Shown piece after piece: positions 7,492 to 64,000 of a DNA stretch of 64,000 nucleotides. Each line of letters starts with the position of its first letter. Within the stretch, counting starts at the first letter, position 1. Position numbers and translations under genes: made by a program. The stretch covers positions 1,280,001 to 1,344,000 of the forward strand of contig OY759316.1 in NCBI GenBank assembly GCA_963662275.1, in the 5' to 3' direction. The stretch is from Candidatus Cloacimonadales bacterium. GTDB lineage: Bacteria > Cloacimonadota > Cloacimonadia > Cloacimonadales > DAONDQ01. The notes under the pieces were generated by a model that was not told where the DNA came from, did not search any database, and worked only from the letters and a program-made list of their open reading frames with translations.

Positions 7492-10044
7492 ATGTCAGTG
7501 AAAAGAAATATCAGTGCCTTCATAGGTTCCTTTATTAGCATTGTTCTTCTCAGCATTGCCTTTTGGATCATACATGTAAAACTTAAACAATACCATTATC
7601 ATGAGATTGTATTTGCCATGCATAGCATTTCGAAAATCCACATACTCTGGGCATTGGGGTTAACCTTTGTAAGTTATTTTGTAATGACATTCTATGATTA
7701 TCTAGCTCTCCGTTACGTTAATTTCAAGCTATCCTATTCTAAAATATCCTTTTCCTCATTCATTGCCTATTCATTCAGCAATAGCATGGGGCATCCGCTG
7801 ATCACAGGAGCCGTCAGATACAGATTGTATTCTGCATGGGGATTGAGTGCCATTAATATAGCCAAAGTAGTGGCTTTTTGCACATTTACATTATGGCTGG
7901 GTTTTGTGTTTCTTGCCGGTTTATTCTTTTCGATAGCTCCCATGCATTTGCCTAGTAGTATTCACTTACCGTTTAATTCAATACGCATCATAGGTTTCCT
8001 ATTTCTAAGTATCGTCATCGGGTATTTTGGCTTAGTCTTTCTTAAGAGAATCAAGATTCCATTTAGGAAATGGAGTTTTGAGTTACCACGACCGCAAATT
8101 GCCATCAGCCAGCTCTTTGTATCTTCATTGGATTGGATATTTGCCGGTTCGGTATTATTCTTGCTGCTCCCCCAAGGGCATAGTATTCATTTCTTTACTT
8201 TCATGAGCTTCTATCTACTAGCCCAGGTAATTGCAATCATCAGTCAAGTCCCAGGGGGAATCGGGGTTTTTGAATCTTTAATGTTGCTGTTACTCGGTAA
8301 TGCTTTTACTCCAGCAACAACAATGGGAGTTTTGCTGGCAAATCGCATGATATATTATTTAATTCCTTTAGGATTTGGGTCATTGCTATTTGCCGGTAAT
8401 GAACTTGTTCGTCAACGCAAGCACTTGAAATATGTGATGAACCTCTATGATAAGTTGATTGCTCCACTAGCACCTCAATTATATGCGATTCTTGTCTTCC
8501 TGGGTGGCATTATCTTATTGTTTTCAACAGTGACACCTTCCGTGCATCATAGGTTAATGGCTTTGCAGGAAATTATTCCAGTTCCTGTGATTGAAATATC
8601 TCATTTCATGGGCAGTATCATTGGGATTACACTATTGTTCTTAGCGAGAGGATTACAAAAACGACTCGATTCTGCTTATTATCTGACGATTTTGATGATG
8701 CTAGCAGGCGTACTTGTTTCTTTGCTCAAGGGATTTGACTATGAAGAAGCATTGATATTAAGTGTCATGCTGCTTGTCTTGATTCCCAGTCATCGGCATT
8801 TTTATCGAAAATCATCATTACTTAACCAGCCATTTACACCGATGTGGATATTGTCAATATTCATCGCACTTTGTTGTACCGTATGGCTCGGATTCTTCTC
8901 TTTCAAGCATGTTCAATATGCAAAAGAGTTATGGTGGAGTTTCACTCTTCATGGAGATGCCCCCAGGTTCTTACGTGAATTAGTGGGGCTTGCCGGATTC
9001 CTGTTGATATTCAGTATTATTCGCATGATGCGTATTACATCTCCGAAAATTGATGAAACCCCTGATATGAATGCAGTCAAAGAAATACTAAAATCTTCAG
9101 ATAATACAAATTCTAACCTGGCTTTATTGGGAGATAAACGTTTCTTCTTTAACGAACAGAAAACAGCATTCATCATGTATGCGATTGAAGGAAGAAGTTG
9201 GATTGTCATGGGTGATCCTATTGGTGAAGAATCAGAAATCAAGGAATTAGCCTGGCAATTTAGAGAATATTGCGATAGAAATGGAGGGAGAACTGTTTTT
9301 TATGAAGTTGGAACCAAAAATCTCGACCATTTCCTGGATATGGGTTTAACTCTAACAAAAATAGGAGAAACTGCCAGAATCGATTTGAGCTTATTTGATT
9401 TGGAAGCTGCCGGACATAAAAGACATCGTAGAACGCTTAAAACTGTAGAATTAGATGGCTGTTCCTTCGAAATGGTTCCTGTTGATAAAGTATCGGATAT
9501 CATGCAAGACCTTCAAACAATATCTGATGCCTGGTTAGTTGCCAAGAATGCTCGTGAGAAAGGCTTTTCACTTGGCTATTTCAGCTCTGATTACATCAGG
9601 CAATTCCCTGTTGCTGTTGTGAAAAAAAATGAAGAGATCATTGCTTTTGCGAATATCTGGACGACAAATACTAAAAATGAAATGTCAATCGATTTAATGC
9701 GTTATATCCCTGGTAAAACTGATAGTGTTATGGAATATCTGTTCCTAAAGCTGATTATCTGGGGAAAGGAAAATGGATATCTATGGTTTGAACTTGGAAT
9801 GGCTCCTTTATCCGGGTTGTATAATCGATCGTTAGCACCTTTATGGCATCGGTTAGGCTCTTTGATATTCCAATTTGGCAATCCGGTATATAAACTGCAA
9901 GGGCTTAGAGCATACAAAGAGAAATTTGATCCAACCTGGGAGCCGATCTACATTGCCTCTCCGGGAGGACTGTCGTTACCTGAAATTTTGATAAACCTCT
10001 CTTCTTTGATCTCAAAAGGTTATAAACGCTATCTTAAAACTTAA
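7492..10044 (+). CDS. mprF: bifunctional aminoacyl-phosphatidylglycerol flippase/synthetase
   Basis: Multi-TM N-terminal part (SQVPGGIGVFE, LLKGFDYEEA) and C-terminal synthetase domain (LGDK, MGDPIG, EKGFSLG, SIDLMR, LGMAPLSG, GLRAYKEKF). Confidence 0.92.
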   Translation: MSVKRNISAFIGSFISIVLLSIAFWIIHVKLKQYHYHEIVFAMHSISKIHILWALGLTFVSYFVMTFYDYLALRYVNFKLSYSKISFSSFIAYSFSNSMGHPLITGAVRYRLYSAWGLSAINIAKVVAFCTFTLWLGFVFLAGLFFSIAPMHLPSSIHLPFNSIRIIGFLFLSIVIGYFGLVFLKRIKIPFRKWSFELPRPQIAISQLFVSSLDWIFAGSVLFLLLPQGHSIHFFTFMSFYLLAQVIAIISQVPGGIGVFESLMLLLLGNAFTPATTMGVLLANRMIYYLIPLGFGSLLFAGNELVRQRKHLKYVMNLYDKLIAPLAPQLYAILVFLGGIILLFSTVTPSVHHRLMALQEIIPVPVIEISHFMGSIIGITLLFLARGLQKRLDSAYYLTILMMLAGVLVSLLKGFDYEEALILSVMLLVLIPSHRHFYRKSSLLNQPFTPMWILSIFIALCCTVWLGFFSFKHVQYAKELWWSFTLHGDAPRFLRELVGLAGFLLIFSIIRMMRITSPKIDETPDMNAVKEILKSSDNTNSNLALLGDKRFFFNEQKTAFIMYAIEGRSWIVMGDPIGEESEIKELAWQFREYCDRNGGRTVFYEVGTKNLDHFLDMGLTLTKIGETARIDLSLFDLEAAGHKRHRRTLKTVELDGCSFEMVPVDKVSDIMQDLQTISDAWLVAKNAREKGFSLGYFSSDYIRQFPVAVVKKNEEIIAFANIWTTNTKNEMSIDLMRYIPGKTDSVMEYLFLKLIIWGKENGYLWFELGMAPLSGLYNRSLAPLWHRLGSLIFQFGNPVYKLQGLRAYKEKFDPTWEPIYIASPGGLSLPEILINLSSLISKGYKRYLKT

Positions 10045-10144
10045 ACCAGATGTAGGCATTCTGAAATAAGTGCTACAAATGCCACCCAAAATAGCGACAC
10101 ACAGTCTCCCATTAGATCTAACTCAATTGATAAGATTTCTGATA

Positions 10145-10906
10145 TTATGTTCGTACCTGCCAATCGTCAAATTGGAAGTCCAAGTCTACAAAGCCACACA
10201 TGATATAATTCTTAATTGCCACCGGATTGCTGGCATATAAGTAGAGATAATTATCGGATATTTGGTTGTGATAATCAACTAAGAAATGCATCAGTGATCT
10301 TCCATATCCCTTCCCGCGATATTTTACATGCGTAATGACATCATCGACCCGTGAATAGTGTTCCATGATCTTCAATGATGCTATTGTTACAGGTTTATCC
10401 TCTACAAAACCGACTAGTAAATGAAATGAGGGTAGTTTCAGATGCCTTTCAATGACCTTAACAGTCCATTCACCACCATCATCATCAGAGAAAATGATAG
10501 CATTCACATCGGGTGTAAGTTCATAAATTCTCTGAAATGTGATATTTTGGACGATCCTGACATCCGATGGTTTCTGCCATAAAAAATACTGATTCAAGTT
10601 CTGATAGGCAAGATGGAACTGATATTTATCAAAATAAGGTTGGAGAATATCCAGTTCTTTTGCCTGCATAGAGGCAAAAATACGTGGAATGATCTGTTTA
10701 CTACTGTAAAAGGATAGGATTTCCTGGAATGCATGATCTAAATCAGATGTTAAATCTGTGATTATGGCATGATTGCTGTCCCAGGAATCTTTATTATCAT
10801 CATTATAATAGAGTATCCCATAAGAATTGATGATAGAATCAGCAAAATCCTGTGGGAAATGAATCTCTTTATCAATGAGATCCTCCATATTAAACGATGG
10901 TTTCAT
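10145..10906 (-). CDS. GNAT family acetyltransferase
   Basis: C-terminal VITHVKYRGKGYG acetyl-CoA motif and NPVAIKNY. RBS GGAG. Confidence 0.8.
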   Translation of the reverse strand: MKPSFNMEDLIDKEIHFPQDFADSIINSYGILYYNDDNKDSWDSNHAIITDLTSDLDHAFQEILSFYSSKQIIPRIFASMQAKELDILQPYFDKYQFHLAYQNLNQYFLWQKPSDVRIVQNITFQRIYELTPDVNAIIFSDDDGGEWTVKVIERHLKLPSFHLLVGFVEDKPVTIASLKIMEHYSRVDDVITHVKYRGKGYGRSLMHFLVDYHNQISDNYLYLYASNPVAIKNYIMCGFVDLDFQFDDWQVRT

Positions 10907-11034: not shown

Positions 11035-12895
11035 GAGACTGTTCAAAATTAACCTCCATTTTACGCAGCCTTATTGGTAGTGACAGAGAAAAAGTGGTCT
11101 AAGTGCGACCAATCCACATTTTCTTGACATATGCGGGAGATATTTAAACTTGCTAAAAGTGATTCCTGACGCATGATTGGTTGACCTTTATCGACCAGTT
11201 CTTTGAACCAAAGCGAAAACACAAGGTTGCGGGTGGTTTCTTCAGATTTTAGTCCAAATCTACCGGATGTCACCTTCTTGATTTTGCGGTTCCAGCGTTC
11301 AGAGACATTGGAAGTCAAACCTTTGCTGAGGTGTCTCCAATCACTAATGATATTGCTTTTGATGTATTCGGCGGCGGTTGGGGGAGTAATAGCTGTCAGG
11401 CTTGCGATACCCTTTTTCCTTCCGCCCGCCGTTTCTCTTCGGAAAGCTTTCATAATCCTCTTCTTAAAGAACTTGTCCCTGTCTTCAGGGAGATGACATT
11501 GACTGATTCTTTTGAAGAGATTTCGTATCTTATGGAACTTACAGAGTTGGTAATGGACTTTTGGAAACACTGTTTTTCTTGCAACTGCTAACGATTTACT
11601 GCCATCACTGACAATCAGGGTTGGATCTTTCCTGTAGAGCTGTCTGAAGGTTCTGAAACATGCTTCGAATGATTCTTTCTTTGTGTCAGGATACAACTCA
11701 CAAAACAGAGGGATGTGAGTCACAAAATCAACAATACTGATGACATAGTACGGAATACCTTTGATCTTCACATATTTCTCATCAATGCTGATCTTTCCGC
11801 TCCACTTACCGATTGAGTTCAGAATCAGGCTCTGCAGGTCAGCGATTTCATGCCAGAGATTTGAGACTGTAGCTTTACAGGTGTTGAGCAGCAAAGCTAT
11901 CGTCTCGAAGTTCATACCGCTTCCAACCAGGTAATGTACCAGCAGACACAGGTTCTTGCGTTCCAGACTATGGAACGGCTTTGCATCGGCGGTTCTATGG
12001 GATGTATTGCCTTTAGCAGTCTTCATTTGTTCCAGGAGTCTGTCACAGATAACAGGTGTATTCTGCTGACCGGCAAGCAGTTTCAGCAGATGTACAGCAT
12101 CACCGCCTACTGTCTTTTTCAGAAGAAGCTTCTGAGCTTGCTTAACTACAGACAGAGAATTGACCTGAGAAGCATATTTGCAGAAAGTGGTATAGGACAT
12201 TTTAAAATCATGATGGCTGATGAACTCCTGATACATGACATTTAAAGGTAAAAGCAGGTTATTGATAACAAAATTCTCGATCTGAGGAATACACTCCAGC
12301 AGGTCAACTTTCCGGCTTAAATATGCCAGGATATCATGACCATGCTGCTCAAACTCTTGCCAGAAATTATGTACATTCCTGCGGTCTGCGTAGTTAAACA
12401 GATCAGCTATTTGCTGAAGTGTAAGGAGGTTGTCTCCGCCTATTCCTACTAATAAGCGTAGAAACGCTATTAAGAACTTGTGGTTTGATGTTGTCTCAGG
12501 CAAAGTGAATGAAAATGGTACGTTAATACTTACATGGTATTGGTTACTTTCATGACTAACACTTACCGCTTCTTGAATTGGAGTGTTTTTTTGTCATAAT
12601 ATCCTCCCTTTTGTTACCAGGTAACAAATGCCATTGAAGCTATAGCAAAAAACTTGTAAAGAACTATTTTATATGATTTTAACTACACATTTAGTCAGAA
12701 ACGGCTTCGAAACATTACTTATAATCGCGTGTTTTTCAATTTTAGTCAAAAAGCTTAACTTGTGATTTGGTGTCCTTAGCAGAGCTTATCTGTCAATTCT
12801 GGAAGGTATGTTAAATTATGACCGTTTCGACCACTTTTTTCAACTTGCTACTTTCTAACTTATTGAATATTATGAATAACTTCATGAACAGTCTC
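11035..12895 (-). mobile_element. insertion sequence, Mutator-like/IS256-related, 1861 bp
   Basis: Terminal IRs GAGACTGTTCA (11035-11045) and TGAACAGTCTC (12885-12895). Exact 8-bp direct repeat GATCACAG at 11027-11034 and 12896-12903. Encloses a DDE transposase. Confidence 0.9.
11061..12503 (-). CDS. DDE transposase
   Basis: ISIDEKYVKIKG (D1), LIVSDG (D2), QLCKFHK (Mutator/IS256 CxxH), TSNVSERWN (E). True start may be the out-of-frame ATG at 12597. Confidence 0.85.
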   Translation of the reverse strand: MPETTSNHKFLIAFLRLLVGIGGDNLLTLQQIADLFNYADRRNVHNFWQEFEQHGHDILAYLSRKVDLLECIPQIENFVINNLLLPLNVMYQEFISHHDFKMSYTTFCKYASQVNSLSVVKQAQKLLLKKTVGGDAVHLLKLLAGQQNTPVICDRLLEQMKTAKGNTSHRTADAKPFHSLERKNLCLLVHYLVGSGMNFETIALLLNTCKATVSNLWHEIADLQSLILNSIGKWSGKISIDEKYVKIKGIPYYVISIVDFVTHIPLFCELYPDTKKESFEACFRTFRQLYRKDPTLIVSDGSKSLAVARKTVFPKVHYQLCKFHKIRNLFKRISQCHLPEDRDKFFKKRIMKAFRRETAGGRKKGIASLTAITPPTAAEYIKSNIISDWRHLSKGLTSNVSERWNRKIKKVTSGRFGLKSEETTRNLVFSLWFKELVDKGQPIMRQESLLASLNISRICQENVDWSHLDHFFSVTTNKAA

Positions 12896-25141: not shown

Positions 25142-25621
25142 ATGAATAGAATCATACTGATATCAGTACTCATCATCGTGTGTAGTTTTGTATGGGCACA
25201 AGATTCTAAGTTTGGGGCAGGTATTATTTACTCAGACCCATCTGGAATTAATGCGAAATGCTGGTTAGATTCTAAATCAGCTCTTGATCTGTCACTTGCC
25301 TGGACTGAGGACAATCATATCCATAATACAGTGATTAGTGCTGATTACATTTGGCATACAAATTCTATCGATGATGGTAATGTGGCAAATCTTGTTGCAT
25401 ATTTAGGACTAGGTTTCCGGGCAGATTCTCATCCCGATGCGAATAATCAGAACAGTGATAATTCCTCTGTGAAACTGAGAACACCAATTGGATTTGATTT
25501 GCTATTCCATGACATTCCTATGGATTTATTCCTGGAATTTGTTCCCATGATGCAGTTTCAACCTGTCTCAGAAGCAGATTTCCGTATGGCTATTGGCATC
25601 AGGGTGTGGCCGTTCAGGTAG
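25142..25621 (+). CDS. small outer-membrane beta-barrel-like protein
   Basis: Signal peptide, GAGIIYSDPSGINAK, LRTPIG, LFLEFVP, aromatic C-terminus. Confidence 0.6.
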   Translation: MNRIILISVLIIVCSFVWAQDSKFGAGIIYSDPSGINAKCWLDSKSALDLSLAWTEDNHIHNTVISADYIWHTNSIDDGNVANLVAYLGLGFRADSHPDANNQNSDNSSVKLRTPIGFDLLFHDIPMDLFLEFVPMMQFQPVSEADFRMAIGIRVWPFR

Positions 25622-25628
25622 GGCAGAA

Positions 25629-25691
25629 GGTGCTAGGGGTTAGGTGTTAGGTGTTAGGTGCTAGGTGCTAGGTGCTAGGGGTTAGGTGTTA
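25629..25691 (+). repeat. heptamer array x9 (GGTGCTA/GGTGTTA/GGGGTTA)
   Basis: 63 bp = 9 units, preceded by GCAGAA. Confidence 0.95.
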
Positions 25692-25713
25692 GTGACAAGT
25701 ATAATTATCAGTA

Positions 25714-26076
25714 TTAAATATTGTTAAGCTTGATTCGCAATGTTGCTAGCATCTTGCTAATTTCATTTTGTAGATCAATGGAAGTTTTTGCTTGTCTTTC
25801 TGTAATGTATTGAAGACGAATTGCTAAAATGATTTGCGTTTCTGTTTCTGCCAGCGAGCCTTGTGCTATAGAAATGAAATGCAGATATTCAGCTTTGGAA
25901 TTCCTACCTTTACCTTCTGCTATATTGGATGGAATTGATACTACTGCTCTGCGAATTTGATTTGTAAGACAATACAATTCGTCATTTGGAAAATTCTTGC
26001 TCAATTGATATATTTCAACAGTTAAGTCCATTGATTTCTGCCATACAATCAAATCTTGATAACTTTTTACAATCAT
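25714..26076 (-). CDS. four-helix-bundle protein (23S rRNA IVP-like family)
   Basis: YQDLIVWQKSMDL, FPNDELYCLTNQIRRAVVSIPSNIAEG, IAQGSLAETETQ. RBS AGGAGG. Confidence 0.93.
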   Translation of the reverse strand: MIVKSYQDLIVWQKSMDLTVEIYQLSKNFPNDELYCLTNQIRRAVVSIPSNIAEGKGRNSKAEYLHFISIAQGSLAETETQIILAIRLQYITERQAKTSIDLQNEISKMLATLRIKLNNI

Positions 26077-26109
26077 CTTTCCCTCCTATTATTGTTTCCT
26101 AATCTTCAC

Positions 26110-26438
26110 TAACCCCTAACACCTAGCACCTAGCACCTAGCACCTAGCACCTAGCACCTAGCACCTAGCACCTAGCACCTAGCACCTAACACCTAGCACC
26201 TAGCACCTAACACCTAGCACCTAGCACCTAACACCTAGCACCTAGCACCTAACACCTAGCACCTAGCACCTAGCACCTAACACCTAGCACCTAACACCTA
26301 GCACCTAGCACCTAACACCTAGCACCTAGCACCTAACACCTAGCACCTAACACCTAACACCTAACACCTAACACCTAACACCTAACACCTAGCACCTAAC
26401 ACCTAGCACCTAGCACCTAACACCTAGCACCTAACACC
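26110..26438 (-). repeat. heptamer array x47 (TAGCACC/TAACACC on + strand)
   Basis: 329 bp = 47 units, ending in TTCTGC. Inverted relative to 25629-25691. Confidence 0.95.
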
Positions 26439-26443
26439 TTCTG

Positions 26444-27538
26444 CTATATAATCTCTTCCATCTTCAACTTAGAGTTAAATTCTTCCTCTTCCAATATTTC
26501 CATTTCTGCTAATGCTGCATCCAGGATGGCTACTCGTTCTTTGTAAGGAACGAAACCGCTCTTAAAGCCATTGATGATAATTCCTTTTATATCACGGTAG
26601 CTTAGACCCAATAATTCGATTGCCAGCATATACTCATCGGTTACAGTCGTATCGGAGACGGTACGATTATCAGTATTCAAAGTGACTCTTAAGCCATAAT
26701 CAAGATAGAAATCAACCGGATGCATCTGGATGGATTTCACTGCTTTTGTATGGAAATTACTTTTTAGACAGATTTCCATAGGAATACGATGATCATTCAC
26801 ATAATTCAGCAAGTCACCATCTTCAACCAGCCTGGTTCCATGTCCAAGACGATGTGTACCGCAATAATGAAGTGCCTGGTGGATACTGTCAGGTCCATAA
26901 GCTTCACCTGCATGGATAGTTATATTCAGGTTATTTTTCAGAGCGAGTTCAAAAGCATCACGATGTTCCTTCGCCGGATGATTATACTCAGCACCGGCAA
27001 GATCAAAACCAATGACACCACGATTCTTATAGGCAATTGCCAGTTCCGCAAGTTTCAGCGATGTAGCCGGATCCATGTTCCTGATACCGCATATAATGAC
27101 ACCTGTTTTTATATTGAAAACACGCTCTGCAGCTCGAAGACCTTCGATTACAGCATCTGAGATTTCTGTCAGTTTCATACCCTGGTTAGTATGCAGGATT
27201 GGAGAATAACGAACTTCCATATAGCGCACGTTTTCTTTCGCTGCATCTTCTGCCAGTTCATAGGCTGCACGATACAATCCTTCCCGGTTCTGCAGGACGA
27301 GATTCACGATATGGAAACCTTGAAGATATTCGTCCAAGCTTTCACAGGCTTCTGAACAACAGACGATCTTTGCCAATTTTTTGGGATCAGTTTCTGGAAG
27401 CTTGACATCGAATTTTTTAGCAAGGTCAATGATCGTGGCAATACGTACAGAACCATCCAGGTGAACATGCAGATCAACCTTAGGTAATTTTTCTATAAAT
27501 TCTCTTCTTAGTTTCATTTTTCCATCAATTTTTGTCAT
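26444..27538 (-). CDS. add: adenosine deaminase
   Basis: LPKVDLHVHLDGS, GFDLAGAE, TIHAGE, RLGHG, NTDN. Confidence 0.93.
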   Translation of the reverse strand: MTKIDGKMKLRREFIEKLPKVDLHVHLDGSVRIATIIDLAKKFDVKLPETDPKKLAKIVCCSEACESLDEYLQGFHIVNLVLQNREGLYRAAYELAEDAAKENVRYMEVRYSPILHTNQGMKLTEISDAVIEGLRAAERVFNIKTGVIICGIRNMDPATSLKLAELAIAYKNRGVIGFDLAGAEYNHPAKEHRDAFELALKNNLNITIHAGEAYGPDSIHQALHYCGTHRLGHGTRLVEDGDLLNYVNDHRIPMEICLKSNFHTKAVKSIQMHPVDFYLDYGLRVTLNTDNRTVSDTTVTDEYMLAIELLGLSYRDIKGIIINGFKSGFVPYKERVAILDAALAEMEILEEEEFNSKLKMEEII

Positions 27539-32468: not shown

Positions 32469-32493
32469 CTACATGAATTACGATGTAACATTC

Positions 32494-32852
32494 GGTAGTA
32501 GTATCCTTCAGATTACTTTCAAATCATCACTAAAGACAGTGACTACCGCCAGGTAGTAGTATCCTTCAGGTTACTGTAAAATAGCACAAGCTAAAGACAG
32601 TGACTACGGACCGGTAGTAGTATCCTTCAGGTTACTGTAAAATAGCACAAGCTGAAGACAGTGACTACGGACCGGTAGTAGTATCCTTCAGGTTACTGTA
32701 AAATAGCACAAGCTAAAGACAGTGACTACGGACCGGTAGTAGTATCCTTCAGGTTACTGTAAAATAGCACAAGCTAAAGACAGTGACTACCGCCAGGTAG
32801 TAGTATCCTTCAGGTTACTGTAAATTAACACAAGCTGAAGCAGTAGCCACCC
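32494..32852. repeat. tandem array of ~61-bp REP-like units (6 copies, first degenerate)
   Basis: GGTAGTAGTATCCTTCAGGTTACTGTAAAATAGCACAAGCTAAAGACAGTGACTAC starting at 32494, 32552, 32613, 32674, 32735 and 32796. Confidence 0.92.
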
Positions 32853-32912: not shown

Positions 32913-35324
32913 TCATTTCACCACCATCATCTTATGAACAGCCTGGTACTTTCCTGCATTGAGCTTCACGATGTAAACACCTGAACTAATCTCACGATTC
33001 TGGTCATTCTTGAGATTCCAGGCTGTGGAGTAAGGTACTTCTGTTTGACTGAAGCCTGTCTTATCTTTGGTTAAAGAACGCATATCATTCATACTGCTGG
33101 AAACTTCAATGGATTTGACAAGTTGCCCTCTGATATTGAAGATTTCTATCATAGGTGATTTAGTTGACTTCTCGGGTAAGCTGAATTCCAGGAACACGGC
33201 ATGTGATCTTGTACCATTCAGATAGACCGGATTCGGATAAGTTGTAAAGGACACTTCAGGGTCATATATCCCTTGAACATCATCATGATTGCCCACAGGC
33301 ACCGAACCAAACTCATAACAGCCCATATCGATTCTGCCATCCCATACCCGGTGATTACCGGCTAAGTCCATAACCGAAATATTCAAGCCGGTTGTATCCT
33401 GGAGACCTGCATTGATACAGGGTGAGCTTGAACTTAATTGATAATACGCAGGATCAGATATAGGAAGAGAGTTATTGAGCATACCTGCAAATAAGGGATT
33501 GCTGTTCAGCAGCAGGTTATTCTGCTGCACATATTCCAAATGATCAGCAGCCACAGTCCGATGCAATAATGTATTGCTGATCGTAGGATGGTACTGAACC
33601 TCATCGAAGGTCATAAAACTTACATCCCAGTACATATCAGGATTATAGAAGATACTATTTCGGATATCCGCTTCTCCATTGATTTGAACCGGACATGTAT
33701 CACTGCCCCTGTTGTTGGCAATGGTGCAGTTACTGATCTGCATTCTCTGGAAATTATTGTGCAGGGAAACCAGGGAGCTCGCCCAGGGATCATTGATCTC
33801 GGAGTAGTTATTAACGATCAGCATATTGGACATATCCAGGCTGTACGCAGACTCTTCTTCATTCACATTCTGATAAAAGAAGACATAGGTATTATCTGTC
33901 GTGCAATTTGAAATAATACTGTTACGGATTGTAACATCTGATTCCCAGATTTCAAATCCCACATTATTCCCATTGTATCCGTTAATCTGCATGTTATCAG
34001 CGATACAATTATTCATGATTAGATTATCAACATAGAGCATACGGAATGCCGTGTTACCGTCATCATTCACAGTCGAGTTATGTACCAGGATATTTTCTAA
34101 TACTATATCGCGACTATCTGAACCATCAATTCCATCTGTATAACCAGCATTTCCATCGAACTCCAAATCTCTAAAAATAGCACTATAAGTATTACTAAAT
34201 CCCACTGGCGCACCAGATTCAGGATATCCAACAAATTTGAGATTTCTGACCTCAATATCGTTTTTGTTGGCAACACCAATATAATATCTCAGAGCATTAT
34301 TCTCATCTAAAATCGTTGTTTCTGAACTATCGCCAATCAGTTTCATATGTGATTTTAATCTTAAAGGGAAAAACTGCTCATTTCCAGTGATTGAATATAT
34401 ACCGGGTGACAGGTGGATGGTTTTTGGATTTAGGCTATCCGGTTGAATGACTTGAATCGCATGATAAATAGTTTTAAAGGGATTATTTGATGAAAGACCT
34501 GAATTCGTGTCATCCCCACCCGGAGAAACGTAAAGATCATGGTTAATTAAGCTATAATAAGGGTGCTGAACAGTAATATGAACATTTGATGAAGAACTAA
34601 AGAAATAGCTGTCAGGTTCCGTTAGTTCAATACTGAAGATATCGAAATCTACATGTAATGTGTCCGGAACGTCTCTCATAAACACATCTCGATTCTTATT
34701 GTTGTAAATGCTATTAGGATGAGCAGAATCGAATTGTATAATGGAATTGCTGTTAGCCTCAATTGTCAATCCCCCTGCAAGATTAGTTCCAATGCAATTA
34801 CGAATGGAAGTATTGGACATATTAAATCCTGTTCCGTGAAAATAGACTCCCCCCCCCGGTGCTATACAATTCTGGACGATACAGTTGAGTATTGAAACAC
34901 TTGAATGATTGGTAATTTCAATACCTCCTCCCCATACGCCATCATTATCCGCATCATAATAATCAGGGATCAGATTCACCGGATCGTTATTAGTAAAAGT
35001 AAAACCATTGATCGTGACAGTTTCACCATTATCTATCTCGATACAGGAAGATACTGTGGTAGGATGGATAACAGTGTTATCGATTGTTTCCTGGGAAAGT
35101 GTGGTTGGGAACAAACTTTGCAGTGTGATGGATTTTCCGTTTGTTTCTAGTGCTTCTGAATAGACACCCGGATACACTTGAATAATATCTCCATTAACAG
35201 ATGCATCTATGGCAGACTGGATAGAAGTGTATTGGGTTGTTCCATCCAGATTTACGGTAAGGGTTGCAGCACTCAGCATTCCAACCATAAACACAAGCAA
35301 GATAAAGGAAATCCATTTAAACAT
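32913..35324 (-). CDS. secreted beta-helix/DUF1565-like protein with CTD (type B, duplicate 1)
   Basis: Signal peptide, type B motifs (IQSAIDAS, HDLYVSP, DSLNPKTIH, IDMGCYE), YPNP CTD. Confidence 0.85.
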   Translation of the reverse strand: MFKWISFILLVFMVGMLSAATLTVNLDGTTQYTSIQSAIDASVNGDIIQVYPGVYSEALETNGKSITLQSLFPTTLSQETIDNTVIHPTTVSSCIEIDNGETVTINGFTFTNNDPVNLIPDYYDADNDGVWGGGIEITNHSSVSILNCIVQNCIAPGGGVYFHGTGFNMSNTSIRNCIGTNLAGGLTIEANSNSIIQFDSAHPNSIYNNKNRDVFMRDVPDTLHVDFDIFSIELTEPDSYFFSSSSNVHITVQHPYYSLINHDLYVSPGGDDTNSGLSSNNPFKTIYHAIQVIQPDSLNPKTIHLSPGIYSITGNEQFFPLRLKSHMKLIGDSSETTILDENNALRYYIGVANKNDIEVRNLKFVGYPESGAPVGFSNTYSAIFRDLEFDGNAGYTDGIDGSDSRDIVLENILVHNSTVNDDGNTAFRMLYVDNLIMNNCIADNMQINGYNGNNVGFEIWESDVTIRNSIISNCTTDNTYVFFYQNVNEEESAYSLDMSNMLIVNNYSEINDPWASSLVSLHNNFQRMQISNCTIANNRGSDTCPVQINGEADIRNSIFYNPDMYWDVSFMTFDEVQYHPTISNTLLHRTVAADHLEYVQQNNLLLNSNPLFAGMLNNSLPISDPAYYQLSSSSPCINAGLQDTTGLNISVMDLAGNHRVWDGRIDMGCYEFGSVPVGNHDDVQGIYDPEVSFTTYPNPVYLNGTRSHAVFLEFSLPEKSTKSPMIEIFNIRGQLVKSIEVSSSMNDMRSLTKDKTGFSQTEVPYSTAWNLKNDQNREISSGVYIVKLNAGKYQAVHKMMVVK

Positions 35325-35389
35325 TGTTACTCCATTTTTTGATTAGGCAGGGAGCTTTCGCTCCCCACCTGAATTACGATGTAACATTC

Positions 35390-35629
35390 GGTAGTAGTAT
35401 CCTTCAGGTTACTGTAAAATAGCACAAGCTAAAGACAGTGACTACGGACCGGTAGTAGTATCCTTCAGGTTACTGTAAAATAGCACAAGCTAAAGACAGT
35501 GACTACGGACCGGTAGTAGTATCCTTCAGGTTACTGTAAAATAGCACAAGCTAAAGACAGTGACTACCGCCAGGTAGTAGTATCCTTCAGGTTACTGTAA
35601 ATTAACACAAGCTGAAGCAGTAGCCACCC
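35390..35629. repeat. tandem array of 61-bp REP-like units (4 copies)
   Basis: Units start at 35390, 35451, 35512 and 35573. Confidence 0.92.
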
Positions 35630-35689: not shown

Positions 35690-38107
35690 TCATTTCACCA
35701 CCATCATCTTATGAACAGCCTGGTACTTTCCTGCATTGAGCTTCACGATGTAAACACCTGAACTAATCTCACGATTCTGGTCATTCTTGAGATTCCAGGC
35801 TGTGGAGTAAGGTACTTCTGTTTGACTGAAGCCTGTCTTATCTTTGGTTAAAGAACGCATATCATTCATACTGCTGGAAACTTCAATGGATTTGACAAGT
35901 TGCCCTCTGATATTGAAGATTTCTATCATAGGTGATTTAGTTGACTTCTCGGGTAAGCTGAATTCCAGGAACACGGCATGTGATCTTGTACCATTCAGAT
36001 AGACCGGATTCGGATAAGTGTATAGTGTAGCACCCACTTCAGCGGGTATTTCCTCTTCATCAATCCCCACAGGCATCGAACCAAATTCATAACAGCCCAT
36101 ATCGATTCTGCTATCCCATACCCGATGATTACCTGCTAAGTCCATAATCGGAATATTCAAGCCGGTTGTATCCTGGAGACCTGCATTGATGCAGGGAGAG
36201 CTTGAGCTTAATTGATAATAGGCAGGATCAGAGACAGTTAGAGTATCGCTGAATGCTCCTGCAAATAAGGGATTGCTGTTCAGGAGCAGGTTATTCTGCT
36301 GCACATATTCCAAATGATCAGCAGCCACAGTCCGATGCAATAATGTATTGCTGATCGTGGGATGGTACTGAACCTCATCGAAGGTCAAGAAACCTACATC
36401 CCAGTACATATCAGGATTATAGAAGATACTATTTCGGACATCTACTTCTCCATTAATTTCAATGGGGCATGTATCACTTCCCCTGTTGTTGGCAATCGTG
36501 CAGTTACTGATCTGCATTCTCTGGAAATTATTGTGCAGGGAAACCAGGGAGCTTGCCCAGGGGTCATTGATCTCGGAGAAGTTATTAACGATCAGCATAT
36601 TGGACATATCCAGGCTATATGCAGACTCTTCTTCATTCACATTCTGATAAAAAAGGACATAGGCATTATCTGTCGTGCAATTTGAGATAATACTATTGCG
36701 GATAGAAACATCTGATTCCCAGATTTCAAATCCCACATTATTCGCATTGTATCCGTTAATCTGCAAGTTATCAGCGATACAATTATTCATCACCAGATTA
36801 TCAACATACATCATGCGAAATGCCGTGTTACCGTCATCATTCACTGTCGAGTTATGTACCAGAATATTTTCCAATACAACATCGTGACTATCTGAACCAT
36901 CAATTCCATCTGTATTACCCGCATTCCCATCAAACTCCAGGTTTTTGAAGATTATATCATTAGATTCGTAAAAACCTGCAGGTGCTCCATATTCTGGATA
37001 GCCAACAAACCTTATATTACTTACTTCTACATTATTTTGATAACCAACTGTCAAATAATAGTATCTATTAGCATGATTCTCATCAAGTATAGTCGTTTGA
37101 GAACTATCTCCATTTAATCTTGTATTAGATTTTAAACGCAGCGGGAAAAACTGTTCATTCCCAAGAATTGAATAGATTCCTGCCGCCAAATGAATGGTTT
37201 TTGGATTCAGACTGTCAGACTGAATGATCTTTGTTGCATAGTGTATATTTCTTAATGGATCAGATTCAGTAAGTCCCGAATTGGCATCATTGCCATCGGG
37301 AGATACATAAAGGTCATGATTGACCAAGTTAAAATACGGATTATGTACATTGATATGAACATCTGGACAATCAATTACATAAAAGAAAAAATTGTCCGGT
37401 TGATTAAGAATGACACTGAATATGTTAAACGTGATTTGTAGAGTGTTCGGAACGTCTCTCATAAACACATCTCGATTCTTATTGTTGTATATACTATTAC
37501 GATGAACCGAGTCGAATTGTATAATGGAATTACTGTTAGCCTCGATTGTCAATCCCCCGGCAAGCTCAGTTCCAATGCAATTACGTATGGTAGTATTGGA
37601 CATATTAAATCCTGTCCCATCGAAATATATCCCACCACAAGGAGCTATACTGTTTTTAATCACGCAATTCAGTAAGAAAATACTGGATTGATCTGTTACT
37701 TCAACACACCCCCCAAAATAGCCATCCTGGTTCGCATCATAATATTCAGGGATCAGATTCACAGGATCGTTATTAGTGAAAGTAAAACCATTGATCGTGA
37801 CAGTTTCACCATGATCTATCTCGATACAGGAAGATACCGTTGAAGGATGGATAACAGTGTTGTCGATTGTTTCCTGGGAAAGTGTGGTTGGATACAAGCT
37901 TTGCAGAGTGATGGATTTCCCGTTTGTTTCAAGGGCTTCTGCATAGACTCCCGGATACACTTGTATAATATCTCCATTAACAGAAGCATCTATGGCAGAC
38001 TGGATCGTAGTATATGGAGCGCTTCCATCCAGATTTACGGTAAGGGTTGCAGCACTCAGCATACCAACCATACACACAAGCAAAATCAAGGAAATCCATT
38101 TAAACAT
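35690..38107 (-). CDS. secreted beta-helix/DUF1565-like protein with CTD (type B, duplicate 2)
   Basis: Paralog of 32913-35324 with the same C-terminal domain sequence. Confidence 0.85.
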   Translation of the reverse strand: MFKWISLILLVCMVGMLSAATLTVNLDGSAPYTTIQSAIDASVNGDIIQVYPGVYAEALETNGKSITLQSLYPTTLSQETIDNTVIHPSTVSSCIEIDHGETVTINGFTFTNNDPVNLIPEYYDANQDGYFGGCVEVTDQSSIFLLNCVIKNSIAPCGGIYFDGTGFNMSNTTIRNCIGTELAGGLTIEANSNSIIQFDSVHRNSIYNNKNRDVFMRDVPNTLQITFNIFSVILNQPDNFFFYVIDCPDVHINVHNPYFNLVNHDLYVSPDGNDANSGLTESDPLRNIHYATKIIQSDSLNPKTIHLAAGIYSILGNEQFFPLRLKSNTRLNGDSSQTTILDENHANRYYYLTVGYQNNVEVSNIRFVGYPEYGAPAGFYESNDIIFKNLEFDGNAGNTDGIDGSDSHDVVLENILVHNSTVNDDGNTAFRMMYVDNLVMNNCIADNLQINGYNANNVGFEIWESDVSIRNSIISNCTTDNAYVLFYQNVNEEESAYSLDMSNMLIVNNFSEINDPWASSLVSLHNNFQRMQISNCTIANNRGSDTCPIEINGEVDVRNSIFYNPDMYWDVGFLTFDEVQYHPTISNTLLHRTVAADHLEYVQQNNLLLNSNPLFAGAFSDTLTVSDPAYYQLSSSSPCINAGLQDTTGLNIPIMDLAGNHRVWDSRIDMGCYEFGSMPVGIDEEEIPAEVGATLYTYPNPVYLNGTRSHAVFLEFSLPEKSTKSPMIEIFNIRGQLVKSIEVSSSMNDMRSLTKDKTGFSQTEVPYSTAWNLKNDQNREISSGVYIVKLNAGKYQAVHKMMVVK

Positions 38108-57388: not shown

Positions 57389-58060
57389 TTAGCTTGCGCT
57401 GTATGTCTGTCGGTAGTCGCTGTCTTTAGCTTGCGCTGTTTGTTTGTCGGTGGGCGCTGTCTTTAGCTTGCGCTGTTTGTCTGTCGGTAGGCGCTGTCTT
57501 TAGCTTGCGCTGTTTGTCTGTCGGTAGGCGCTGTCTTTAGCTTGCGCTATTTGTCAGTCGGTAGTCGCTGTCTTTAGCTTGCGCTATTTGTCAGTCGGTA
57601 GTCGCTGTCTTTAGCTTGCGCTATTTGTCAGTCGGTAGTCGCTGTCTTTAGCTTGCGCTGTTTGTCTGTCGGTAGGCGCTGTCTTTAGCTTGCGCTATTT
57701 GTCTGTCGGTAGTCGCTGTCTTTAGCTTGCGCTGTTTGTTTGTCGGTGGGCGCTGTCTTTAGCTTGCGCTGTTTGTCTGTCGGTAGGCGCTGTCTTTAGC
57801 TTGCGCTGTTTGTCTGTCGGTAGGCGCTGTCTTTAGCTTGCGCTATTTGTCAGTCGGTAGTCGCTGTCTTTAGCTTGCGCTATTTGTCAGTCGGTAGTCG
57901 CTGTCTTTAGCTTGCGCTATTTGTCAGTCGGTAGTCGCTGTCTTTAGCTTGCGCTGTTTGTCTGTCGGTAGGCGCTGTCTTTAGCTTGCGCTGTTTGTCA
58001 GTCGGTAGGCGCTGTCTTTAGCTTGCGCTTTTACGATAACCTGAAGGATACCACTACCGC
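57389..58060. repeat. 37-bp tandem array (17 full units plus a partial unit), ending in the other arm of the REP-like element
   Basis: TTAGCTTGCGCT(G/A)TTTGTC(T/A)GTCGGTAG(G/T)CGCTGTCT with exact period 37 from 57389 to 58018, then TAACCTGAAGGATACCACTACC. Confidence 0.95.
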
Positions 58061-58083: not shown

Positions 58084-59625
58084 ATGTTTCATCATGAATT
58101 GATCCTGATCTTGGATTTCGGGTCACAATACACGCAACTGATAGCCAAGACCATTCGCAGCCTGCATATTTACTGTGAGATCGTTCCCTATAATATCAGT
58201 TATGAATCTACTCTGGAAAAGAACCCATATGCTTTGATTCTTTCAGGCAGTCCCTCTAGTGTGACGCATCAAGATGCTCCCATACCAGATATCAATATCC
58301 TGAAACTCCCTATCCCTATCCTGGGTATCTGTTATGGAATGCAGCTCTTATCTCATTTGGGTGGAGCAAAGGTAGAATCTGCTGACAAGAAGGAATATGG
58401 CTTTGCTGAATTCCATCCGGATATGGCGAATCCCTTATTTGATAACTTATCTGAAAAAGAGATAGTCTGGATGAGTCACGGTGACAGTGTAATTGAACTG
58501 GCAGAAGGTTATAGACTAATTGGGGAAAGCGAAAATACCCCTATTGCTGCAATCGCACATATTGAAAAACCAATCTTCGGCTTGCAGTTTCATCCTGAAG
58601 TTGTCCATACAAGGAATGGAAAGCAAATCATATCCAATTTCTTTATCAATATTGCAAAATGTTCCTGCGATTGGACTTCAATTTCTTTTATCGATAGCTC
58701 AGTGCAAAAAATACGTGAGCAGGTAGGGGAGAAGAAGGTTATTCTTGGTCTCAGCGGAGGAGTGGATTCTTCCGTTGCAGCCAGTTTGTTATATAAAGCC
58801 ATAGGGAATCAACTGATCCCCGTCTTTGTTGATACTGGTCTTTTAAGGAAAAATGAAGCACAGGATGTGATAGATATCTTCATGCATGGATTTGGACTAC
58901 CCCTGGATGTTGTGTATGCCGGAAATATGTTTTTGGAGCGTTTGAAGGGAATTACTGATCCGGAGTTGAAAAGAAAGATCATTGGACAGACATTCATAGA
59001 AATCTTCGAACGGGAAGCAGGCAAATACCAGGACATCTCTTTCCTGGCTCAGGGTACTCTTTACCCTGATGTGATTGAGAGTGTTTCCTTCAAAGGACCG
59101 TCTGCCACGATCAAAACCCATCATAATGTAGGCGGATTACCGGATATTATGAAACTTCAGCTTGTCGAACCGCTTCGCGAATTATTCAAGGATGAAGTCC
59201 GTGCTGTAGGCAGGGAGTTAGGTTTACCGGAACTATTGATCAAACGCCACCCTTTCCCCGGACCGGGTTTAGCCGTGAGAATCCTCAGTGATATTACACC
59301 TGAGAAAGTCACCTTACTCCAGGAAATAGATTATATCTTTATCTCTGAATTATTAGAACAAAACCTCTACGATTCCATCTGGCAGGCATTTGCCGTATTA
59401 CTCCCTGTGCAATCGGTCGGTGTCATGGGGGATGAACGCACCTACGAATATGTGTGCGGTTTACGTGCTGTGAACAGTTCCGACGGTATGACAGCCGATT
59501 GGACAGAACTGCCGTATTCTTTCCTCAAACGCGTTTCCAATCGTATCATCAATGAAGTGAAAGGTGTGAATCGGGTCGTTTATGATATCAGCTCCAAACC
59601 TCCGGCTACCATCGAATGGGAGTAA
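58084..59625 (+). CDS. guaA: GMP synthase (glutamine-hydrolysing)
   Basis: [50 protein letters not shown]. Confidence 0.97.
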
Positions 59626-62093: not shown

Positions 62094-62269
62094 CTTTTCT
62101 CCAGGATTATCAGGCAGAGAGTCCAGCTCTCTGCCTGCATCATGTTTTGTCTCTTTACTTCTGTTTATATTGATACACGTTTTAGGATATTAAGTAACTT
62201 TTATCAGGTGTTAGAGATGAATCATCGCCTTCGCAAGGATGACAGTGCTGTTATTCTGATCTTCTGCCC

Positions 62270-62612
62270 CAGCACCTGGCACCTAGCACCTAGCACCTAG
62301 CACCTAACACCTAACACCTAGCACCTAGCACCTGGCACCTAGCACCTGGCACCTAACACCTAACACCTAGCACCTAACACCTAACACCTAGCACCTAACA
62401 CCTAACACCTAGCACCTAACACCTAACACCTAGCACCTAACACCTAACACCTAGCACCTAACACCTAACACCTAACACCTAACACCTAGCACCTAACACC
62501 TAGCACCTAGCACCTAACACCTAGCACCTAGCACCTAACACCTAACACCTAGCACCTAACACCTGGCACCTAGCACCTAGCACCTGGCACCTAGCACCTG
62601 ACACCTAGCACC
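62270..62612 (-). repeat. heptamer array x49 (TAGCACC/TAACACC/TGGCACC on + strand)
   Basis: 343 bp = 49 units, ending in TTCTGC. Confidence 0.95.
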
Positions 62613-62621
62613 TTCTGCAAC

Positions 62622-64000
62622 CTATTTCAGCAGCATCAGCTTTTCCATGACCTGGTGTTCAGCAGTCTGCAAGCGGGCAAAATAAATACTGCTGCTCACT
62701 GCTTCACCATTTTCATTATTGCCGTCCCATTTGATTTTGTGAGAACCTTCAGTTTGCCAGCCATCCCACAAATTTTTTACCAGTTGTCCCTTCACATTAT
62801 AAATCTGCAGGGAAGACGAACCGGCTTTAACAGTATTGTACTCAATGACAGTACTGGGATTGAAAGGATTGGGATAACAGGTCATTCGTATCGGTACTTC
62901 TGTAGCAGGTGTCATGAATGATAGCTCGGTGCTGGCATAGAGGTAATCATCACCCTTATGAAGCTTCAGAGGCGACTGTGTAATGACCCTGGTTTGAGGA
63001 TCATAGACGTAGGCTGTGGAAATGTGCTGCAGTCCGGCTTTCGATTCATAGTATTTGACAATTTCCAGTTCCGTGTCTTCCGGAAGATCAAGGACATAAG
63101 CATTGATTTCCATCAGCGTATCATCAACAACCGAAGCTCCTTTGCAGACACCGTCCGCATAGACAGCGACCTCTTTCAAGCCGGTTTCTGCTCCGAGAGC
63201 GATAAAGACCGGCAGATAATCCGCTTTCTCATCGAAGGTGAAATATTCCGGTATTTCCCTGACTACATGAGGTATTGGTCTAATCCGATTCCAGATAAAA
63301 CTCGGAACTTCATTATAGCATTTAATGATTGCCATATCACCATAATTGAACTGTCTTTTTCCGCTGGAAATCATCCAGCCGTCTTTAGTTCTTGCCATAA
63401 ACCAGGTTTGGGTTTGAATCGAATACACATTTGCCCAGATGGAAGCCAGGGCTTTTTCCGGGGACTGGGATTCCGGCAGAAAATAGCCAACCCAGTTTTC
63501 AATGCGGTTGCCATACAGGTGAAGCGGTGTATCCGGTGAACATCTCGGTGCTGTGATCGAAAGCTCAGAATAATCTGCGGGTGTTGTAATCAGAGCTTTG
63601 TATCCCTGGGGAGAAGTGAGTATATGTAACTGATTTGTCCATTGAGAACCATCCCAATAGTAATAGTTCTGGGTTCCCACTACACTCCATTCTTCATGAC
63701 CAAGAACACTTGTGTTGGCAAGATGTTCCATGACATTTCCAATCTGAGGATTCGTGTCATAGACATCCAGGACGGGATAACAGAGCCAGGTCCAGCCATG
63801 ATGGATGGAATCAGTACCGTAGAACTTGTAGTTGCGTGTTTCCTGGGATACAGGTAATGCTCCCATATCACTACGGGTATTATCAGCATCAGGAAGTTCA
63901 GGATCACCCGCATCAATGCATGGGCTTTTACAGTTTGGTTCCCAGGTTAGCGAGAAGTCATCAGCCTCCAGGTTCTTAAACCCGGGATCAAGATTAATAG
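62622..64000 (-). CDS. type A secreted protein with FlgD-Ig CTD (5' end outside the window)
   Basis: Frame is open to the window edge (...KSPCIDAGDP...DMGA). Shares WxGY, YGDM, KxDYxP, CKGA motifs with the other type A proteins. Confidence 0.8.
   Translation of the reverse strand, partial: INLDPGFKNLEADDFSLTWEPNCKSPCIDAGDPELPDADNTRSDMGALPVSQETRNYKFYGTDSIHHGWTWLCYPVLDVYDTNPQIGNVMEHLANTSVLGHEEWSVVGTQNYYYWDGSQWTNQLHILTSPQGYKALITTPADYSELSITAPRCSPDTPLHLYGNRIENWVGYFLPESQSPEKALASIWANVYSIQTQTWFMARTKDGWMISSGKRQFNYGDMAIIKCYNEVPSFIWNRIRPIPHVVREIPEYFTFDEKADYLPVFIALGAETGLKEVAVYADGVCKGASVVDDTLMEINAYVLDLPEDTELEIVKYYESKAGLQHISTAYVYDPQTRVITQSPLKLHKGDDYLYASTELSFMTPATEVPIRMTCYPNPFNPSTVIEYNTVKAGSSSLQIYNVKGQLVKNLWDGWQTEGSHKIKWDGNNENGEAVSSSIYFARLQTAEHQVMEKLMLLK

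Follow-up and report, generated by a model that had tools for sequence, protein, structure and literature searches.

A PF05635 gene between inverted heptamer arrays in a Candidatus Cloacimonadales genome, and the recurrence of this layout in the sampled family branch

The DNA considered here, called the window, is a stretch of 64,000 nt from a Candidatus Cloacimonadales bacterium (contig OY759316.1, positions 1,280,001 to 1,344,000). On its minus strand, directly behind the gene add, a small four-helix-bundle gene of the PF05635 family lies between two arrays of tandem 7-nt units that are reverse complements of each other. Inverted heptamer arms of this kind are the normal state of the sampled family branch across bacteria. 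The window unit itself can be read, with somewhat better than even confidence, as a self-contained cassette of the intervening-sequence (IVS) type, in which a PF05635 gene with its own ribosome-binding site (RBS) is enclosed by inverted heptamer arrays and which would work at the level of RNA. The initial annotation of the locus had proposed a mobile or RNA-processed cassette, and this interpretation is partly supported. The label of a self-contained cassette is a fair one because inverted flanks are enriched around relatives of the gene and because empty sites, found for five other cassettes, lack the arrays.

The window cassette and its protein

Read on the minus strand, the elements follow each other in the order add stop codon, GCAGAA, (GGTGYTA)x47, GTGA, RBS, the 120-aa gene, TCAC, (TARCACC)x9 and TTCTGC. 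Their positions in the 64,000-nt stretch are as follows (TRF, Tandem Repeats Finder; ORF, open reading frame).

26446-26444, minus strand: stop codon TAG of add; its G is base 1 of the GCAGAA cap
26439..26444, minus strand: outer cap GCAGAA of the upstream arm
26110..26438, minus strand: upstream arm of 47 tandem heptamers, 46 GGTGYTA and a final GGGGTTA; TRF period 7
26106..26109, minus strand: inner cap GTGA, complement of TCAC at 25692-25695
26077..26105, minus strand: leader with the RBS AGGAGGG (26081-26087), 4 nt ahead of the ATG
25714..26076, minus strand: 120-aa four-helix-bundle gene, PF05635/TIGR02436; ATG at 26076, TAA at 25716-25714
25692..25695, minus strand: inner cap TCAC
25629..25691, minus strand: downstream arm of 9 tandem heptamers (TARCACC, two of them TAACCCC), reverse complement of the upstream units
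25623..25628, minus strand: outer cap TTCTGC, 1 nt from the stop of the convergent ORF
25142-25621, plus strand: convergent ORF of 159 aa, stop TAG at 25619-25621

The gene between two inverted, capped heptamer arrays, as described in the initial annotation, was found again piece by piece in the sequence. The cassette occupies the whole spacer between the two convergent stop codons, with 18 nt between the TAA of the 120-aa gene and TCAC. TRF detects period 7 in both arms, with 46.4 copies and 92% matches in the upstream arm and 9.3 copies in the downstream arm. The C/T position of the upstream heptamers follows a 21-nt higher-order pattern. A two-unit heptamer pattern (at most one mismatch) has 102 matches in the window; shuffled sequences give a mean of 0.02, and none of 100 shuffles reaches 102. 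The rare GGGGTTA variant had been placed near the inner ends of the arrays. This holds for the long array, where it is the last unit, and fails for the short one, which has one copy second from the outer end and another second from the inner end.

The predicted stem of about 70 bp in sliding registers is also borne out by the complementarity of the sequence. The segments 25623-25692 and 26375-26444 are 70 nt long and 91% complementary, and many shifted registers pair over 65-68 nt at 89-94%. The caps inside and outside both arrays are mutually complementary as well. When the minus strand of 25600-26460 is folded as RNA, the outermost register pairs, caps included, with a minimum free energy of -287.9 kcal/mol (z = -3.8; none of 20 shuffles does as well). 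TAG occurs every 7 nt in the upstream arm, and since each 7-nt unit shifts the frame by one, one stop codon in each unit is enough to close every frame. No sigma-70-like site was found on the minus strand between the long array and the ATG, other promoter types being outside the scan, and no terminator-like site was found. Rfam gives no family in or around the cassette and no rRNA match at E<=1 in 25400-26700; at gathering scores, the window contains two tRNAs only and no rRNA.

The 120-aa protein, the sole copy of its family within the window, belongs to PF05635 (E = 3.2e-42, 143.5 bits, cut-off 33.8, with residues 7-111 aligned to positions 1-105 of the 106 in the profile) and to TIGR02436 (E = 4.5e-39, 133 bits, cut-off 24). 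It also passes NF008911 (146.3 bits, cut-off 137). The conserved motif of the family is GxxRxxxSxxxNxxE (PMC3936711). R43, S47, N51 and E54 of this motif are present and are invariant in 25 close relatives, while the first position is Q40 instead of G. In the alignment of these 25 homologues, S-[IV]-P-S-N-I-A-E-G is the best conserved motif. Two structures match, 2GSC (Xcc0516, E = 1.8e-23) and 2RLD (E = 6.6e-11), both deposited with five chains, and Xcc0516 is a homopentamer according to PMC4990558. By homology to these two structures, the 120-aa protein probably forms a homopentameric ring of four-helix bundles.

The relation to Avd, the accessory protein of diversity-generating retroelements (DGRs), which had been noted at the outset, stands as homology at the level of profile hidden Markov models (NCBIfam DivGenRetAVD, E = 2.7e-9; Pfam bAvd, E = 2.5e-6; PHROG 3206, E = 3.3e-11). 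The scores are under the curated cut-offs for DivGenRetAVD (37.3 vs 80 bits) and bAvd (28.4 vs 40 bits). Among the 40 ORFs of at least 90 aa in the window, none gave a match to a reverse transcriptase domain; they comprise housekeeping genes, surface proteins secreted by the type IX system and a single Mutator-family transposase. The Pfam/NCBIfam profile search gave the 120-aa protein no transposase-family match, the PADLOC defence library gave 0 families at E<=0.01, and tblastn against phages gave no match to the family protein at E<=1e-5. Of 8000 scored candidates, 7990 match the family at E<=1e-3. The nearest named homologues are from Candidatus Cloacimonadota, and two listed paralogues (P0002 and P0012) lie on the same contig as the query, at 85% and 66% identity. 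Among the neighbours, add was identified by PF00962 (E = 2.6e-96). The label 'beta-barrel', which the other neighbour had received, is unverified, as that neighbour has no Pfam/NCBIfam match at E<=0.01.

The outer boundary of the long array at 26431-26452 and the gene at about 25907-25924, in the DNA of the N-I-A-E-G motif, have an exact 14-mer in common, ATATAGCAGAAGGT. None of about 4870 random 40-nt stretches matches the gene as well as this boundary does. The idea that array boundaries are derived from the motif DNA of the gene was rejected, as the sharing is confined to the window; at other loci it is seen in 1 of 86 boundaries, against 24 of 1525 in the null set.

The layout across the family

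Relatives were collected by a genome scan with the alignment of 25 close homologues, and the best 80 of 601 confirmed relatives (46-62% identity) were sampled. The sample represents the PF05635 branch nearest the query, without the source lineage, the DGR-linked Avd genes and the rRNA-borne copies. Its 80 loci (L numbers below) presumably span about 12 phyla. Each gene was scored by the best local alignment of its 400 nt upstream with the reverse complement of its 400 nt downstream, with a threshold of 16. This threshold was reached by 43 of the 77 testable family genes, compared with 8 of 760 random same-length placements, 13 of 776 real genes crudely taken from ORF boundaries and 8 of 285 real genes of 80-200 aa. 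In direct orientation it was reached by 8 of 77 family genes. The score of the window locus is 55. A second, independent set consisted of eight plasmid-borne genes from named isolates. Six of them reached the threshold, and the seventh scored 14.5 with visible repeats; the eighth adjoins an ISL3 transposase and has kept its downstream array alone. The check suggested in the initial annotation, for enrichment of inverted heptamer flanks around family members, thus has a strongly positive outcome.

The eight positive controls among the small genes include a divergent PF05635 gene (L028), three Y1-transposase-like genes with flanking palindromes, one GxxExxY-like gene and one ORF between two gene-less heptamer hairpins. 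The latter hairpins are near-identical (L003, 2488-2577 and 3142-3238), with inverted GAATAGA heptamers and a loop of about 45 nt, and are a miniature, cargo-free form of the cassette arms. The GxxExxY-like gene lies between inverted repeats of the 8-nt unit GCNGAGAC (L013, 8106-8585) and fills the spacer where the related L038 has a PF05635 cassette. Similar arms may be used by other small gene families. With two GxxExxY-type genes sampled, of which one has inverted 8-nt repeats and the other does not, the numbers are too small to judge.

The arms are built of heptamers throughout the sample. Period 7 is the best period in 41 of 44 upstream arms, the window included; two were too short to score and one has period 8. 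Period-8 arms are found in L040 and L085. Strict tandem detection gave arrays of period 7 or 14 in 27 of the 80 upstream flanks of 300 nt and in 27 of the 80 downstream ones, vs 46 of 3349 background tiles, an enrichment of about 25-fold beside family genes. The background contained 61 arrays of any period, 46 of which are those with period 7 or 14, and solo arrays are present in ordinary spacers of the sampled loci. The median array is 32 nt long upstream and 31 nt downstream, or about 4.5 units. The outliers in length are the 47 units of the window and an upstream array of about 290 nt in Anabaena sp. 90.

The heptamer itself differs from locus to locus (AATAGGG, AGTGGTT, AGCCAGT, ACAGTGG, CTGGTTT and others). 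Despite these differences, 1323 of 1473 aligned arm positions form Watson-Crick pairs. The cassettes between sdhA and sdhB in four Bacteroidota have different heptamers, each with a matching opposite arm, and the same holds for orthologous cassettes upstream of guaA in two Betaproteobacteria. In the fab operon of a Pyrinomonadaceae genome (L028), two cassettes with different heptamers occupy the fabH-fabD and acpP-fabF sites (8323-8760 and 9930-10405); the ATG of fabD overlaps the stop of the cassette gene (ATGA), and its frame continues through the downstream array. The arms thus hold period 7 and complementarity while the heptamer changes.

The two arms are not equivalent. On the sense strand, the upstream arm has more G than C in 36 loci, more C than G in 4 and equal numbers in 4. 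Stop codons close more frames in the upstream arm than in the downstream one at 17 loci; the reverse holds at 5 loci, and the two arms are equal at 22 (p = 0.014). TAG is contained in 21 of the 44 dominant heptamers.

Pairs of filled and empty sites were found for five other cassettes. Three came from synteny among the loci (L049/L076, L013/L038 and L040/L061) and two from the plasmid collection. Of the latter, Anabaena sp. 90 and Dolichospermum UHCC 0315A have 98.8% identical flanks at a cas6-cas4 site, and Picosynechococcus PCC 7003 and PCC 7002 have 92% identical flanks at a cmr2-cmr3 site. The arrays are missing from the empty site in all five pairs; therefore, the gene and its arms are gained or lost together. 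At the filled sites, replacement affects the entire spacer and also reaches into the neighbouring genes, taking in the final codons of the upstream one or the initial codons of the downstream one. Anabaena sp. 90 has a new ATG for cas4, with a frame passing through the downstream array, and in L013 the tail of the upstream gene is encoded by the upstream array. The five pairs, which come from lineages other than the source, show no target-site duplication. An empty nrd site was also sought by near identity for the Nostoc edaphicum cassette, whose own record was the only match.

The cassettes are mostly found within runs of genes that share their orientation, with median spacers of 62.5 and 54 nt. 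The upstream neighbour is co-oriented with the cassette gene in 62 of 74 loci and both neighbours are in 47 of 71. The dN/dS (nonsynonymous to synonymous substitution) ratio of orthologous copies is 0.06 for L033/L042 and 0.22-0.32 for three Bacteroidota, and the cassette protein is under purifying selection. Some copies are decaying, as judged from the cassette gene of L049 (10001-10360), in which a TAA interrupts the frame at the conserved G-S-L-x-E position.

Proposed working and rival explanations

The cassette most likely works in the manner of the rRNA intervening sequences, through co-transcription, pairing of the arms and a cut by RNase III. It has no evident promoter of its own, and transcription would read through from add. 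In the transcript, the 9-unit arm could pair with any 9 of the 47 upstream units and form a duplex of about 65-70 bp. RNase III would cleave this duplex, as it does in the homologous 23S rRNA cassettes, and the cassette RNA would be freed from the host message, so that the harm of the insertion would be small. A tandem arm would still pair after slippage, in any register. Because the 7-nt unit cycles through all three frames, the TAG in each upstream unit would end translation arriving from the preceding gene. As the pentameric rings Xcc0516 and Avd are its homologues, the protein probably binds nucleic acid, and its ligand might be the stem formed by its own repeats.

Several observations weigh against this account. 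The scores of 34 of the 77 relatives are under the threshold. A few loci carry direct arrays, such as L043 (9805-10518), where the gene is flanked on either side by about 150 nt of GGGACTA/GGGATTA units, and the arrangement in L041 is mixed. One cassette lies antisense within the nrd operon, between nrdB and nrdA. All three frames are closed in only 19 of 44 upstream arms and none in 6, and the arrays of some loci form the translated tails of neighbouring genes. The mismatches between the arms are G·U or U·G in 36 cases vs A·C or C·A in 46 (binomial p = 0.32; 14 vs 17 loci), so wobble pairs give no sign of selection acting on the sense RNA, and the absent signal is equally compatible with homogenisation of the arms at the level of DNA. 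Read-through, stem formation and cleavage at the window locus are all inferred.

Given the negative wobble test, a DNA-level mechanism remains a serious rival, although we consider it rather unlikely. The inverted arrays would then act as terminal repeats or single-strand hairpins for movement or copying, in the manner of MITEs (miniature transposable elements with inverted repeats) or of repetitive extragenic palindromic sequences and their associated transposases (REP/RAYT). The protein would be cargo or an accessory factor, and the complementarity of the arms would come from template switching and not from selection on RNA. This would suit the variable presence of the cassettes among close relatives, the gene-less GAATAGA hairpins of L003 and the recurrence of the cap and heptamer at a second, gene-less site of the window. 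Solo arrays are closer to the cassette heptamer at their own locus than to cassette heptamers elsewhere (mean 4.88 vs 4.48 of 7 positions; 3 of 1000 permutations reach the observed value), Y1-transposase genes with REP-like flanking palindromes were picked up in the same loci, and inverted GGGAATC pairs are reported in Xanthomonas, 70 of them in Xcc (PMC4692102). Nevertheless, the filled sites show replacement of the spacer and of the ends of neighbouring genes, not interruption, and no duplication of a target; these five pairs, all from other lineages, do not fit a cut-and-paste, MITE-like element. The heptamers differ between cassettes of one genome (L028), and a single sequence-specific transposase is therefore unlikely. 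The lack of a transposase-family match for the 120-aa four-helix bundle is a further point against the DNA-level reading. A symmetric DNA hairpin has no need of the asymmetry that places the G-rich arm upstream in 36 of 44 loci, and orthologous copies are kept across Bacteroidota families under purifying selection.

The arrays might instead serve mainly as a binding platform, on which a pentameric ring would occupy about five units, in RNA or DNA of its own, either to autoregulate or to form a protein-repeat complex, an explanation that we hold to be distinctly less probable still. It bears a loose likeness to type III toxin-antitoxin pairs, in which the protein is bound to repeat RNA encoded alongside. 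The median array of about 4.5 units would fit a ring of five, as would the five chains of 2GSC and 2RLD and the homopentameric Xcc0516. Avd, for its part, is described as a positively charged pentamer that binds RNA stem-loops (10.1101/2023.10.23.563531). AG is present in 37 of 44 dominant heptamers, heptamers are common to cross-phylum pairs of loci (e.g., L013/L048 and L002/L029), and protein similarity is correlated with heptamer similarity (Spearman 0.20, reached by 0 of 500 permutations). This correlation is weak, however, and may come from co-inheritance alone, since related loci share labels. The motif S-[IV]-P-S-N-I-A-E-G stays invariant while the heptamers vary, the arrays of the window have 47 and 9 units and not 5, and the defence library returned no match. 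It is highly improbable that the arrays are plain slippage-prone simple repeats or G-quadruplex repeats that stand on both sides of the gene by chance. Reports name heptamers as the most frequent of the long simple repeats in many bacterial genomes (quoted in PMC4679880 and PMC4692102), solo arrays do occur in ordinary spacers, and the 21-nt pattern suggests that the long array grew by slippage. The enrichment beside family genes, the inverted pairing far over every control (random placements, real genes and direct orientation) and the complementarity of the inner and outer caps speak against it, and the controls exclude both chance and plain slippage. GG is present in 21 and GGG in only 7 of the 44 dominant heptamers; therefore, three-tetrad quadruplexes are not the common principle.

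Related systems, other repeats and meaning for the family

The window cassette resembles most closely the ORF-bearing intervening sequences of 23S rRNA in Leptospira and Coxiella, which have the same protein family and an ORF within stem-forming terminal inverted repeats. The family background given in the initial annotation is confirmed here, as S23p genes are described in stem-enclosed 23S rRNA intervening sequences that RNase III excises (PMC4990558). According to the same source, RNase III cuts a 28-bp stem at the ends of the Coxiella IVS, and two to three tandem GACAGAT heptamers precede the S23p ORF; the number of these heptamers varies between strains, and the 5' cut is at the first repeat. 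Tandem heptamers at the 5' arm are thus common to the Coxiella IVS and the window cassette. Unlike those sequences, the window cassette lies between two protein genes, with no rRNA match in the window, and its arms are arrays of 47 and 9 units instead of a 28-bp stem. The Coxiella ORF is reported to be decaying and probably untranslated, whereas the window ORF has a strong RBS and relatives under purifying selection. Excision by RNase III is known of the rRNA sequences and predicted for the window cassette. The family is also reported in rRNA insertions of bacteria of the candidate phyla radiation (CPR), and the CPR locus of our sample (L026) does not lie within an rRNA gene.

The cassette protein and the Avd of DGRs are homologous four-helix-bundle proteins. 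They are set apart by the profile scores under the cut-offs and by the lack of a reverse transcriptase domain among the 40 window ORFs, and no heptamer arms of DGRs are reported in those parts of the searched literature that were available. Tandem 7-nt units in spacers, near the 3' end of the upstream ORF and often within operons, are a feature shared with known intergenic heptamers, such as the cyanobacterial short tandemly repeated repetitive (STRR) sequences, TAACTGA and GGGAATC. TAACTGA repeats occur in Beggiatoaceae, Cyanobacteria and Bacteroidetes (PMC4679880). The inverted GGGAATC pairs of Xanthomonas and the GGGGAYT repeats of Nostoc were treated as quadruplex repeats (PMC4692102). In contrast to all of these, the arrays described here are tied to one gene family and are gained or lost with the gene. 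The terms 'S23', 'four helix' and 'intervening' do not occur in PMC4679880, nor do 'S23', 'bundle' and 'xcc0516' in PMC4692102. In full-text literature, taken without subscription journals and database family descriptions, no paper was found that links the family generally to flanking inverted heptamer arrays; prior notice is possible. The general architecture of the family with inverted heptamer arms is apparently undescribed.

REP/RAYT and Correia-type miniature inverted-repeat elements are small spacer units with hairpin-forming inverted ends that are co-transcribed with their neighbours and processed in the mRNA. The cassettes differ from them in having arms of tandem heptamers of variable sequence instead of a fixed palindrome, and neither a transposase nor, in the five pairs, a target-site duplication was found.

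A third array of the same heptamer, which the initial annotation had not linked to the cassette locus, lies elsewhere in the window.

62262..62618, minus strand: third, gene-less array, consisting of GCAGAA, 49 GGTGYYA units (62270-62612) and then GGGCAGAA; TRF 49 copies

On the plus strand it has TTCTGCCC at the left and TTCTGC at the right. It is of the solo kind, like the STRR, TAACTGA and GGGAATC repeats. The GCAGAA cap opens this array, as well as the short array of the cassette in the plus-strand reading. The third array begins 3 nt past the TAG stop (62622-62624) of a gene that reads into it, and all three arrays of the window, in their G-rich sense, start 0-3 nt after a TAG stop. About 56 nt past the array is a lone inverted unit, CTAACACCT (minus strand, 62207-62215), which may be the leftover of a lost downstream arm. 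A tblastn search found no family gene beside 62270-62612, and the array may be a cassette without its former gene.

The window also contains repeats of other kinds. A 61-nt tandem repeat forms two arrays (32493-32844 with 5.8 copies and 35389-35621 with 3.8 copies), both with (TTTTAAT)x4 after them. Each array stands immediately 3' of a beta-helix gene, and the two genes concerned are paralogues (32916-35324 and 35693-38107, minus strand). A 37-nt tandem repeat (57389-58029; 17.3 copies, 95% identity) fills the spacer directly upstream of guaA (58084-59622). The sole recognisable mobile-element gene of the window is the Mutator-family transposase gene at 11064-12503 (PF10551, PF00872).

There is a practical side to these arrays, as short-read assemblies probably break at them. 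The longest contig is below 3 kb for 81 of 120 listed close homologues, a count given without a metagenome-protein baseline.

PF05635/TIGR02436 is a very large family with solved structures and no assigned function, and it is now tied to a fixed nucleic-acid architecture of covarying inverted 7-nt arrays that travel with the gene and lie in operons such as those of fab, sdh, nrd and cas. Three separate observations are thereby connected, namely the ORF-bearing rRNA intervening sequences, the members of the family scattered inside CRISPR-cas loci (PMC3936711) and the abundant intergenic heptamer repeats. The presence of the family in cas loci, such as the cas6-cas4 and cmr2-cmr3 sites seen here, looks like ordinary cassette insertion. 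A wider proposal is offered tentatively, as a possibility about which we are more doubtful than confident. PF05635 genes with inverted heptamer arms would form an unrecognised, domain-wide class of cassettes in operon spacers and rRNA genes, whose ring protein may recognise or maintain the repeat stem, and their spread and decay into gene-less hairpins and solo arrays would explain much of the bacterial excess of heptanucleotide repeats.

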